The notes under the pieces are model-generated. The model saw only the letters and a program-made list of their open reading frames with translations. It was not told the origin of the DNA and did no database searches. DNA of 64,000 bases from Microthyrium microscopicum (taxonomy: Eukaryota). The stretch covers positions 2,127,481-2,191,480 of the forward strand of contig MU004232.1 in the NCBI GenBank assembly GCA_010405405.1, in the 5' to 3' direction. The position numbers and the translations under genes were made by a program. This document shows, in pieces, positions 34,416 to 39,886 of this stretch. Positions within the stretch are counted from its first letter, which is position 1. Each line of letters begins with the position of its first letter.

Positions 34416-36645
34416 ATGGGGGAGCAACCTTCCAAAATGCCACCTCCAAATTTTGACCCGACGAATCCTCAAATTCCAGGAGTCAGCAGTACCTATTCGG
34501 CCTTGGATTTGGATGATGCTACAGTCACTGAAGGATTGCGATCGATATTAAAAGGTTCCACTCTTGAGACGGTCTCGGAACAACGAGATGTACGCATAGG
34601 AATAGGTGCTGTGAGCTCCATGCTTGCAATCTATGTCATATTTCGAATATGGAGAGATAGTTGGAGAGCCTCTCAACTGGCTCCGCAACAACCCAAAACA
34701 GGGTGAGTCGTTCTATTACTGTATATTGATGCAAATGCTGACTCGAATCAGGCGGTTTGCATATCTATGGGAAATACATCCCGCCGAGACCTTTCCATTA
34801 ATCCTAGGCTTTGCAATTCTTGGTTCTAGCCTGACGATGATTATAATTGAAGCTGGAGCTCTGAGTACGATTGCAGTAGAGAATTGTAAGGACACAGGAA
34901 TCATTGGAGTTCCAAGTAAGAAATAAAACCTACCAAGTTATGTATGAGCTAGACTGACTGATATTAGTTGTTCTTACCTTTGCATTCCTTCACTTCGTTT
35001 TTGGCCTAGAAACTACGATTCGTTACCTACGCCGGAATACACCAATCAGCCAGCGGTACAGATTCAGTATTCCGGTCAACCTCGCTGCATTTGGTGTTTT
35101 GGAACTAATCACCTTGATTGTGGCGAAAGAAGTTGGTGACGATGCCGACAAATGCTTTGGTAACATAGTCACTCGCGCAGCTTCCTTGGATCTCAATCGG
35201 GGTATCATTGGAGTTCTCGGTATTGTCATGATCTCATTATTGACCATGGCTACAATCATCGCTCTACAATTGCTTCGGACCATTCACTTGGATCCAGCGG
35301 AACGAATTGCTGGAAGTCGCATGGTTTACTATCTCGTAGCAACTACTGTTCTCGAGGTAAGTCACTCCATTCAAATTCTTGTTATACGATACTAATGTAA
35401 TAGGCTTTCATCATTCCATTCTTCGTTCAAGATTATCTCGGAACCCTCGATGATGACTTTACATCTGCGACTATTGCAGAATACGTCTTGTTTTCATCAG
35501 GAGCAGTGCTCACTTTCTTGCATCTATTTTTACGAGCAAATGCGGCCATGACTGCTATTAAAGCAAGAGAGACGACATGGCACACCCCAAGACGCTTAAG
35601 ATTCTGGGGACCAAATGATCTGGAGGTCATGAACATAAGTCCGCCTCTCAATCTCGTCAATCCATCCTTTCGACCCGACGAAAAGATTGACGAACTGTGC
35701 CACAAAACCCAAAGAGGAAGTCCTCCAACTCCCAAAACACCACTTACAAACTTCTCTTATCCCCAAAAATCTCTCTTATCGAAATCCTCAAGTCTAAAGC
35801 TTCGACGCATTGACACAGAGAATGACCTTCCTCCACTTCCTCCTACACCTATTTCTCAACAGTCATCACCTGTCGCACAGATGAAATCACCTGTCGCGCA
35901 AATAAGATCGCCGAGCTCTCAAATCAACTCTAACCATGCAAGAAAAAAGAGCTATGTTCTTTTCCCTGGCGAGGATGACATAAAACTCCCAGCTACAGTA
36001 TATAGTCCTCCAAGCCTGACAAGCCGTACGAACCCTTTTCGACCTGTTCTTAAGGTCCAAACTGGACCACAAACGCAACCAATACAAGGCCCTTTCACAG
36101 CGCCATCAGGAATATTGGGTGGTCCTTTGACCGCGCCATCGGTGACTGATATCAGACAAGCTACGTTAGAAGCCAATGGAGGCCTGCAACCACCTGGCGC
36201 TCCTTGGATGCTCCATCGAAGAGGAAGCAGCACAGATAGCACAGCAACAGTCCAAATAGGAATCAGACTATCAAACGCCGGAAGTGGGGTTTTCCAAAGA
36301 TCGCAAAGCTTTCTTCCTCTACCCAGAATGGGCGAAATGCCCGAGAGTCGACCTGGCTCGAGACTACGAAACCCATTCGACAATGATTTCTCAAATGGCT
36401 TCCAAGCCCAGGTCCGCGATGCAACAGGCCGTGATCTTAACTCTTTCCAATGGATTGACACACCTAGCGACGAATCACCACCAGCTGTGGATAACGGTCT
36501 GCTTCTTCTTCAGCCCACCACTTATACACCGCCGCTCGCTGCAGCCCGAAGGCGACCAGCGTTGGTTCAAGGCTCCATTATAACATCAACTTCCGCATCA
36601 TTTGGGAACACTGCTCCAGAGACGGAATCGCGAGATCGTCGTTAG
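34416..36645 (+). CDS. Seven-transmembrane (GPCR-like) orphan protein with long Ser/Pro-rich tail, 4 exons
   Basis: Introns 34703-34751, 34916-34967 and 35357-35403 join the ORFs in frame; seven hydrophobic segments counted by eye. Confidence 0.75.
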
Positions 36646-37712
36646 CTTTATACACTGCTCTTTTTTACCTCTGCCATATACTCCGTCCCATTATGGAACT
36701 CGTAAATGTAAATATAAAATGCTTGATATTTGGAAAAGAGATGCTACAGCCATTTGGCCAGCATGAAGGATTTGCCGCATGGTTTACGGAAAGATGGGAC
36801 CACGCATTGCCCATCATGTATTTTCAGCCTTGCTCAGACCAGCAGTCTCGTTTTATATCTGACATCTATACCAAAACTACTACAGTCTATTCAACTGCCA
36901 CACTCTGCCCATTATTACCGAATCTAGCCTGAAACAAAATCTCAGCATATCTGCTCCATAAATCTAAATCATTGCATACAAGATACAATCCTCTCTCGCC
37001 CGCAATTGCCTACCAGGTCCATAATTTCTCGCGCGAGACTACGGAGCCTTTCCCCGCGAAGCTTGAGCTCCACCCCGGTCAACAGAACTGCTTGTCTGGC
37101 ATGTCATGAAGAGCCATTCAATGCTTCTGTATCGCACAACCTTTGGCATCAATGATCTAGGATCGTCTGACAATGGATGTCGATCAGGCTGGGCAATTCC
37201 ACCGCCCTTGTTAACTTTCCCATGCAGCTCCGGACAGAGGCTGCTGCGACATGATGTCGTACGCAAGCGGGGCATAAGGCGAAAATGCTGGGTTTGAATG
37301 ACCCGTTCCACCGAATGGTAGGCTTCTAGAAAACCGTTATTGGGCGACCTGTGATTATGGTGTTTACGTTAGAGGAGGGGTTGGTTGTTAGTTTCATTGG
37401 TATTTAAGTTGGCTTGGTCCCGGTTCTTGGAGCTTTTTGGACTGTTGTGATTGATATACTCATTGTCGAAGCATAGTAGTCTTAGAGTCAGTATATTTCT
37501 TTACATATGTTGATGATGGGAGTAATATATACTAATGTACTGCGATAGTATACTTATTGCCAATCATCACTTCCTATACAATATCATCTCATTGTAATCA
37601 TCCTTCGATCTACTGCGCATAGTACGGTTCCGGCATCACACAGCTGATATCAACACCAACTTTGCCCGAGACATATTCTCATCTCTCTATAACGTTCGAC
37701 TAATCAGACAAA

Positions 37713-39149
37713 ATGGTATTTCTCTCTCGTTCCCTTCCCCGCGCTTCATCAGCCTTGTTCCGCAAACCAACACAATGCCACCCTATTCGACATACTGCAT
37801 ATCGATCACTAACAGCAACCTCTCGCAAACAGGGAAAAGTACTTCTTGTCCTCTACGACGTAAGTCTCTCCATCAAACTCATCTTAATCTCATCTAACTC
37901 TCGTCAGGGCGGCGAACATGCCGACCAACAACCCCTCCTGCTCGGAACAACAGAGCGTGAACTAGGTCTCCGTCAATGGATCGAGTCCCAAGGCCACACC
38001 CTCGTCACGACCTCCGACAAAGAAGGCGAAAACTCCAAGTTCGACCAAGAACTCGTTGACGCAGAAGTCATCATCACCACCCCGTAACTCACCTCCGCCC
38101 TTTCCCAGGCGTTCCTCTCCCCTTCTAACATCTCCCCCAGTTTCCACCCAGGCTATCTAACAGCCGAACGTCTCGCCAAAGCCAAAAAGCTCAAACTCGC
38201 CGTAACAGCCGGCATCGGCTCCGACCACGTCGACTTGAACGCTGCCAACACGACCAACGGCGGCGTAACCGTCGCGGAAGTGACCGGCTCGAATGTTGTG
38301 TCCGTGGCAGAACATGTGGTGATGACGATATTATTGCTGGTGAGAAATTTTGTGCCGGCGCATGAACAGATTGAACGCGGGGATTGGAATGTTGCTGCGG
38401 TGGCGAAGAATGAGTTTGATTTGGAGAATAAGGTTGTGGGCACTGTGTAAGTGATTCTGTTTGACGAGGGGATGTGATGGAATGGTGAGGATGATGGCTA
38501 ATGTGGTACAGGGCCGTGGGACGAATTGGTGAGAGGGTGCTGAGACGGTTGAGGGCGTTTGATTGCAAGGAGTTGCTATACTTTGACTATCAGCCGCTCA
38601 GTGCGGAGGTTGAGAAGGAGATTGGATGCCGTAGAGTCGATACGCTCGAGGAGATGTTGGGACAATGTGATGGTAAGTCAGCCCGCCCCGACCTATTAAC
38701 CATATGCTGACAATACGCTTTCAGTCGTGACCATCAACTGCCCACTCCACGAGAAGACGAAAGGTCTCTTCAACAAAGAACTCATCAGCAAAATGAAGCC
38801 CGGCGCCTGGCTAGTCAACACCGCCCGCGGTGCCATCGTCGTCAAAGAAGATGTCGCCGAAGCGCTCAAATCAGGCCATCTCCGCGGCTACGGCGGCGAT
38901 GTCTGGTTCCCGCAGCCAGCACCAAAAGACCATCCATTACGCACTGCCAAGAACCCATGGGGAGGCGGAAATGCCATGGTGCCGCATATGTCTGGTACCA
39001 GTCTTGATGCGCAGAAGCGGTATGCGGATGGCACAAAAGCTATTCTCGATAGCTACTTCTCTGGCCGTGAAGATTACAGGTTGGAAGATTTGATCGTGCA
39101 CAAGGGCGACTATGCAACCAAAGCATACGGTGAGCGTGCAAAGAAATAA
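37713..39149 (+). CDS. FDH1: NAD-dependent formate dehydrogenase
   Basis: [63 protein letters not shown]; introns 37860-37907, 38084-38140, 38446-38511, 38672-38724, plus an optional intron 37716-37832. Confidence 0.97.
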
Positions 39150-39354
39150 GTATGATAGGTAATAATATGGTATGGATGAGTATATCAAAAGGATAACATA
39201 TACCATGGGCAACCAGTGCCAACCTTAACACGAATGGGGAATTTATCAAAGCAACCTTGCTGTATCAACGAGAATCTCAATCGCTTCGCTTCCAAAAACC
39301 CAAGTGACCAAAATGAAATGCCGTGTCGTAATATCGCCCATACACACCATCTAA

Positions 39355-39886
39355 TTATCTCGGCCTCTCAACATGATCATCCCTCTCTTCATCGCTAGAA
39401 TCCCGAAACCCTTCCTCCAAATCCCGACTTAATCTCGGCCGTTCCTCACCCATCCCTAATCCCTCCCTTAGCCCTCCACGTCTCCGATCAATGCCATCCC
39501 AAACCGCCTCCTCCAATTCCTCATCCTGACTCGCTAAATCATCACCAACCTCACTGCCGCCGGGACTATCTACGCGCCCTCGTCGAGGTCTCAGCCACCG
39601 CTCCGCAAACCGGAAGTTAGGCGAGAGAAAAGTTGGTAAGATGGAGGAAAGAGCGTCTCTCGCACGTGTAGCTATACTGGGTGTTGAAGAGGCGGATTGG
39701 AGAGGTAGGTATTGGGAGTAGCGGGCGATATGTCGGCGGTAGAGGGGAAGGACGGCAAAAAAGAGAACGCAGTATATCAGGGCGGATATAAGTAAAGGGA
39801 CTAGGAGAGCCTGGATATGTGGTTAGAGGGGTTTGGAGAGGGAGGGAGGTGGTGGTATTTACTTTGACAAAGGAGAGGAATGCCAT
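39355..39886 (-). CDS. Small (159 aa) N-terminal TM protein, missed by the ORF track
   Basis: Exon 1 MAFLSFVK (39886-39863), intron 39811-39862 (GTAAAT...CTAAC...CAG), exon 2 ALLVPLLISALIYCVLFFAVLPLYRRH..RYSQYLP ... RLSRDLEEGFRDSSDEE, stop at 39355. Confidence 0.8.

Follow-up and report, generated by a model that had tools for sequence, protein, structure and literature searches.

An intron directly behind the start codon that probably doubles as a mitochondrial presequence in a fungal formate dehydrogenase gene

In the NAD-dependent formate dehydrogenase (FDH) gene of Microthyrium microscopicum, the start codon is followed immediately by a segment that can be read in two ways. Within the window (the whole 64,000-nt stretch of DNA that was analysed, taken from contig MU004232.1 of GenBank assembly GCA_010405405.1), the ATG at 37713–37715 of the plus strand abuts a donor-like GTATTT (37716–37721), and a branch-site sequence CTAAC (37809–37813) and a CAG ending at 37832 follow. 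The segment enclosed by these signals (37716–37832) is 117 nt long, a multiple of three, and contains no in-frame stop. Is it an intron, a run of 39 codons, or both? An initial annotation of this DNA had proposed the last of these, with the translated segment acting as a mitochondrial presequence, and its positions, length and reading frame all proved right on re-reading. Our preferred reading, to which we assign a probability of roughly 0.75, is that segment 37716–37832 of this Pezizomycotina gene is a spliceosomal intron and at the same time an in-frame mitochondrial presequence. Judged from the sequences of relatives and the organism's own spliced RNA, this dual reading is well supported, and the one gene would probably give rise to both a cytosolic and a mitochondrial enzyme.

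Gene structure and the spliced transcript

The gene encodes an NAD-dependent FDH. The predicted protein matches PF02826 (E 1.1e-48) and PF00389 (E 5.8e-15), each passing its curated cut-off, its mature part is 84–90% identical to that of related contigs, and many of the proteins matched by residues 1–70 carry the name formate dehydrogenase in their source records. Domains and named similarity fit an NAD-dependent FDH of the D-isomer specific 2-hydroxyacid dehydrogenase superfamily, the activity being predicted. When the 49-residue exon alone was used as a query for homologues, the window's own protein was the sole match. The open reading frames upstream and downstream of FDH gave no Pfam matches.

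The coding sequence comprises six exons, the borders of which were placed by hand and later confirmed with RNA contigs. With intron 1 (37716–37832) removed, the start codon makes up the entire coding part of exon 1, and it is followed by exon 2 (37833–37859, encoding GKVLLVLYD), exon 3 (37908–38083), exon 4 (38141–38446), exon 5 (38512–38672) and exon 6 (38725–39149, including the stop codon). The product is a protein of 365 residues with the start that the initial annotation had assigned to the spliced form. With intron 1 kept, as codons 2–40, the product has 404 residues and is identical to the public M. microscopicum protein; the public model is thus the intron-1-retained form. The other four coding introns lie at 37860–37907, 38084–38140, 38447–38511 and 38673–38724 and measure 48, 57, 65 and 52 nt, a range of 48–65 nt in place of the 48–66 nt first given.

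A length divisible by three and an open frame are weak evidence in a single sequence, because intron 2 (37860–37907) shares both properties; the argument is carried by the comparative data and the RNA. In intron 2 the two properties apparently coincide by chance, the matching intron of a genomic relative (L018) being 56 nt long.

Two sequence data sets were compared with the locus. The first, X1, contains 66% of the sampled words of 37400–39300. X1 is not recorded as RNA and is treated here as RNA-derived because its contigs are without all six introns. Aligned to 37000–39700, these contigs agree with the window at every letter and leave out six GT..AG segments, namely a 62-nt intron in the 5′ leader (37487–37548), the 117-nt intron 1 and the four other coding introns. 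The main contig (record 1, 1,029 nt) lacks all five coding introns and joins 37714 to 37832, which can equally be cut as 37715/37833. Between the piece that ends at 37714 and the piece that starts at 37908 it carries 28 letters, corresponding to the ambiguous G plus the 27 nt of exon 2. Since a contig identical to the window joins across the segment with this 28-letter spacing, intron 1 is a real intron. The main assembled transcript encodes the short form, and the public 404-residue model differs from it. The second data set, the X2 run, contributed one matching piece of 168 nt and no added information.

The leader intron, joined from 37486 to 37549, is a sixth intron that the initial annotation had missed. 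It is followed by the last leader exon of the FDH mRNA (37549–37712, covered by a contig piece spanning 37549–37714), which is free of ATG. An X1 contig extends upstream of 37487, where it covers either further FDH leader or the end of a neighbouring plus-strand gene.

At the level of contigs, then, the RNA check proposed with the initial annotation bore out splicing, and the retained form was unseen among the X1 contigs. Over 37728–37818, inside the intron, X1 contig depth is 0, compared with about 3,150 for the spliced contig; rare variants drop out of contigs, so the absence of a retained form cannot be read from these values. Retained mRNA was minor at best in the X1 sample. The exclusive recovery of the spliced form fits an alternative in which the segment serves Microthyrium today solely as a constitutive intron. 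Its open 117-nt frame would then be a relic of an ancestral dual-use element, and the 404-residue model an artefact of annotation, a first coding exon of 3 nt being beyond what gene finders can place. We consider this unlikely. The absence of a minor isoform is something that contigs cannot show, and the donor has stayed weak: GTATTT is unimproved, whereas the donors of the gene's other coding introns read GTAAGT (three) or GTAACT (one).

Coding and splice-signal constraint in relatives

Related sequences were gathered in one pattern scan of a metagenome collection for the codons of a ten-residue FDH peptide. The scan yielded 21 loci, comprising 11 that are long and mRNA-like, 8 in which the ATG is joined directly to GGN, and 2 that are genomic, with the intron after YDG kept. 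The window and 12 related loci form a set of 13 long sequences, 11 of them distinct; these are related to one another and do not represent 11 independent events. The segment measures 117, 135, 141, 144, 150 or 153 nt in the distinct sequences, and each of these lengths is divisible by three and open. The donor is GTATTT or GTACTT throughout, the branch site is CTAAC or CTGAC with its A exactly 20 nt from the acceptor (11/11), and every acceptor is CAG. The comparison of FDH 5′ ends for which the initial annotation had called therefore returned joint conservation of donor, branch site and length in all 11 distinct sequences.

Each splice signal would lie inside codons of the presequence: the donor in Val2-Phe3, the branch site in Leu(−8)-Thr(−7) and the acceptor (37830–37832) in Gln(−1), counted back from the Gly of exon 2. 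Codon choice at these places was set against the downstream coding sequence of 15 loci. Val2 is encoded by GTA in 11/11 sequences, compared with 22 of 325 background Val codons (6.8%), and Leu(−8) by CTA or CTG in 11/11, compared with 89 of 332 Leu codons (27%). For Gln the background is 52 CAG among 81 codons; the neighbouring Gln(−2) uses CAA in three sequences. Over the first 24 and last 36 nt of the segment, the average share of the most frequent base is 0.66–0.67 at third positions versus 0.78–0.89 at positions 1 and 2. No variation is seen at the third positions that form part of a splice signal, namely A in GTA, T at +6 and G in CAG; the other wobble positions vary freely. At the DNA level the window segment is 55–62% identical to the other sequences. 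This pattern of variation is the signature of two overlapping constraints, one on coding and one on splice signals.

A weak donor next to the start codon also invites a simpler account, in which retention is unregulated splicing noise and the long protein has no selected function. GTATTT agrees with the fungal donor consensus at +1 to +3 and +6 and departs from it at +4 and +5, as this account would have it, and three of the 11 long contigs (L004, L007 and L019) keep a further interruption; they may be unprocessed RNA or genomic DNA. The remaining eight align without a break to the window's mature protein along the full 243 residues present, which span introns 2–5, and therefore retain intron 1 alone. 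Noise leaves unexplained why six different lengths should all be multiples of three and why the variation should be biased to wobble positions. We regard it as improbable, more so than a relic. The departure at +4 and +5 has a ready explanation in the dual reading, because the codon there must give Phe or Leu.

Some prefixes of contig names are common to long and short contigs, which indicates RNA-derived assemblies. A long and a short contig from one species were not found among the 21 DNA loci, where the best coding-sequence identity was 85%.

The expectation that orthologous segments would be divisible by three and open, correct for the 11 distinct sequences, failed in one genomic relative. 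In L020 the ATG is followed directly by GTATTG, and the segment is 208 nt long, not divisible by three, with a CTGAC and a TAG acceptor. Its anatomy indicates that an intron at the start codon can exist as a plain intron, and the presence of at least this one relative without coding capacity lends something to the relic account. On the sequences compared, dual use appears widespread but not universal.

Presequence features and the two protein forms

The search with residues 1–70 returned 107 FDH proteins, which were sorted by the sequence ahead of the conserved [GV]K.L..LYDG. There are 32 short forms (M-GKV), 51 true long forms of the GKV type and 3 short forms with a read-through of the leader; the others are 10 long forms of a KVKVL type, listed from Nemania, Xylaria, Gnomoniopsis and other sources and all beginning MV, and 11 proteins with a truncated or unrelated N-terminus. 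Each of the 51 GKV-type long forms starts with MV, at residue 1 in 50 of them and, in P0056, once 23 leader residues have been read through; Q stands directly before GKV in every one. A donor and an acceptor placed within codons would produce just this: a constant Val (GTN) as second codon and a constant Gln (CAR) as last codon. Acidic residues are absent from the presequence in 51 of 54 sequences scored. By their source names, long forms come from species of the Dothideomycetes, Eurotiomycetes, Lecanoromycetes and Sordariomycetes.

Three long/short pairs are nearly identical in their mature parts (P0108/P0117, 99.7%; P0036/P0092, 99.7%; P0010/P0090, 98.9%). P0056 and P0068 have in common the read-through leader peptide and the first roughly 150 mature residues and differ by exactly 52 residues between M and GKV; their C-terminal halves differ (78% identity overall), so that the two may represent closely related sequences or assembly chimeras. 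As the 21 DNA loci gave no pair, coexistence of the two forms within a species rests on these protein pairs and on P0056/P0068. An origin of the short form from a downstream start codon was rejected: none of the long forms has Met at the junction. The initial proposal of a segment that is both intron and presequence has thus held with respect to splicing in Microthyrium (X1 contig), coding and splice-signal constraint, and the occurrence of both forms among relatives.

Retention adds 39 residues to the window protein, with 6 Arg, 2 Lys and no Asp or Glu, as first counted; the extension is net positive and rich in Ser and Thr. The last ten added codons (37803–37832) match the R-10 motif, RX↓(F/L/I)XX(T/S/G)XXXX↓, which marks precursors cut by MPP and then by Oct1/MIP (PMC3128517, PMC7996597). 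R at −10, a residue of the F/L/I set at −8 and one of the S/T/G set at −5 are all present ahead of the G, a placement that assumes the G of GKV to be the mature N-terminus. The branch site falls within this motif, at its Leu(−8)-Thr(−7) codons. The pattern R.[FLI]..[TSG].... ends at the junction in 50 of the 51 long forms, the exception (P0055) having N at −5. Its presence in 50/51 proteins from several fungal classes is a further observation that splicing noise does not account for.

Two properties of the window presequence are less distinctive, and both suit the relic account. With 39 residues, compared with 44–54 for nearly all others, it is shorter than any other presequence in the set, and it also diverges the most. 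Its maximum hydrophobic moment, a crude measure of an amphipathic helix, is 0.66 versus 0.60 ± 0.12 in shuffled sequences, 31% of which reach it. Set against them are an intact frame without a stop, the lack of any acidic residue and an R-10 motif complete at −10, −8 and −5.

The same undistinguished amphipathicity would be compatible with an extension that is a genuine N-terminal signal for a destination other than the matrix, or for turnover or regulation of the enzyme. This seems to us the least probable of the alternatives, by a small step below noise and clearly below a relic. An Arg-, Ser- and Thr-rich composition without acidic residues suits a presequence, and the R-10 motif belongs specifically to precursors that MPP and Oct1/MIP process in the matrix. 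Plant FDH is, moreover, mitochondrial by way of an N-terminal signal, according to the account in a 2011 review of plant FDH (PMC3347622). In Penicillium expansum, the mitochondrial proteome study reports NAD-FDH in Percoll-purified mitochondria and records that three predictors called it non-mitochondrial (PMC3130790), which speaks against both a non-matrix signal and functionless noise. The mismatch with the predictors is what one would expect had the database contained the short form, and a dual gene may explain it.

Proposed route, precedents and implications

Under the dual reading, the two mRNAs would have the leader and the ATG in common. Because the shared leader contains no ATG and the start is shared, the choice of protein would be made by the spliceosome alone. 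Splicing would join the ATG to GGA and give the 365-residue cytosolic enzyme MGKVLL...; retention would give the 404-residue precursor, with its open frame and the R-10 motif in the last ten added residues. After import, MPP and then Oct1/MIP would be expected to cut the precursor to a mature start at the Gly of GKV, and the cytosolic form, after loss of Met, would begin at this same Gly. The weak donor could plausibly set the ratio of the two forms through incomplete splicing. A more far-reaching version of this scheme, which we hold to be evenly balanced between true and false, is an ancient overlapped dual code across the Pezizomycotina, in which the splice signals are themselves functional presequence residues, both routes end in the same mature polypeptide, and the codon-weakened donor sets, and may let conditions shift, the split of formate-derived NADH between cytosol and matrix.

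The initial annotation had left it undecided whether such a switch was already described for fungal FDH, and in outline it is. The 2011 review describes the FDH genes of several fungi as coding for a signal peptide that alternative splicing either leaves in the mRNA or removes, depending on the state of the host cell; its section on fungal enzymes names the Ajellomyces capsulatus (Histoplasma) isoforms AjcFDH1 and AjcFDH3, citing Hwang et al. 2003, and lists signal-bearing N-termini from Aspergillus oryzae, A. flavus, Penicillium marneffei and Mycosphaerella graminicola (PMC3347622). The Ajellomyces case shares with the present one both the enzyme family and the idea of splicing a signal in or out. 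However, that section gives no start-codon intron, dual-use splice signals, R-10 motif or conservation analysis (PMC3347622). The window sequence comes, in addition, from a different class (Dothideomycetes, Microthyrium). A full-text literature search, with most subscription journals outside its scope, brought up no description of the anatomy beyond this review, and the main text of a 2026 Histoplasma isoform preprint mentions neither FDH nor formate. The principle is therefore already in print in outline for fungal FDH; what is unusual here is how cleanly splice signals and presequence codons overlap and how well the overlap is conserved.

By analogy, the closest mechanistic parallel is PTC7 of Saccharomyces cerevisiae, which is described as having a long-conserved in-frame intron, divisible by three, that is translated if retained and shifts localisation; the intron is reported to be divisible by three and stop-free wherever it is alternative (PMC7491326). 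The gene is unrelated, and its retained intron provides a transmembrane helix that directs the protein to the nuclear envelope, the spliced form being mitochondrial (PMC7491326). In FDH, by contrast, the retained intron would itself be the mitochondrial signal and sits right after the ATG. The homologous mitochondrial FDH of plants carries a cleavable N-terminal presequence rich in Arg and hydroxyl residues; in the account of the same review, however, it is encoded by an ordinary constitutive exon rather than by an intron (PMC3347622).

Two further systems share the outcome and differ in the means. In mouse peroxiredoxin V (Prx V), the presequence of the long form is described as ending in an R-10 motif, and processing by MPP and MIP as yielding the short cytosolic form; the protein is unrelated, and its two forms arise from two in-frame AUGs rather than by splicing (PMC7996597). 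Bol3 of Aspergillus fumigatus is a filamentous-fungal locus reported to give mitochondrial and cytosolic products from one gene, by alternative initiation at a downstream Met (PMC11285713). This last route is closed for FDH, because no long form has Met at the junction.

Functional alternative splicing is reported to be rare in fungi, with few cases that are long conserved (PMC7491326). Here one 117-nt stretch must serve both the spliceosome and the import and processing machinery of the mitochondrion, and both constraints are visible in it; the overlap deserves a proper description. It is also of value for annotation, the public models of the FDH family being divided between the long and the short form. 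For the biology of these fungi, the dual use would bear on the site at which formate derived from oxalate, methanol or one-carbon metabolism undergoes oxidation, and on the compartment that receives the resulting NADH.

Leader of the FDH transcript

The transcript of the NAD-dependent formate dehydrogenase (FDH) gene carries a 62-nt leader intron with GT..AG borders (37487–37548). All of the ATGs near and upstream of the FDH start codon lie inside this intron, and the leader exon downstream of it (37549–37712) is free of ATG. The contig bearing the FDH 5′ end in X1, a run of the same organism treated as RNA-derived, is unbroken through 37000–37486 and extends past 37000. Either the FDH leader is longer than 650 nt and contains several upstream ATGs, or the contig was fused in assembly to an adjacent + strand gene at that gene's 3′ end; the ORFs of this neighbour are at 35404–36645 and 36495–36932 (both + strand, no Pfam match).

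Intron 1 in public models and in relatives

Intron 1 is kept in P0001, the public 404-aa model of 37713–39149, whereas it is spliced out in RNA contigs of the same organism. Across the FDH family, public models are a mix of long, short and N-terminally cut forms, the latter of, for example, 340–341 aa.

The start-codon intron of the related genomic contig L020 lies within the 211 nt upstream of the codons for GKV, the conserved and predicted start of mature FDH. It is 208 nt long, not a multiple of three, ends in TAG, and is a plain intron without presequence capacity. A second long-form type, comprising P0031, P0050–P0054, P0065, P0071, P0072 and P0075, has an extension of 75–83 residues that begins with MV and ends in REKV, followed by KVLAVLYDG; the listed source species include Nemania, Xylaria and Gnomoniopsis. 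Judged from protein sequences, this type may be another case of an intron doubling as a presequence, spliced at some other acceptor.

Intron 2 as an internal control

Like intron 1, FDH intron 2 (37860–37907, 48 nt) is a multiple of three and in frame without a stop. Its counterpart in the related locus L018 is 56 nt long, and the open, frame-preserving state of intron 2 in the window therefore looks like chance. Intron 2 provides a useful internal control on the argument from length and open frame.
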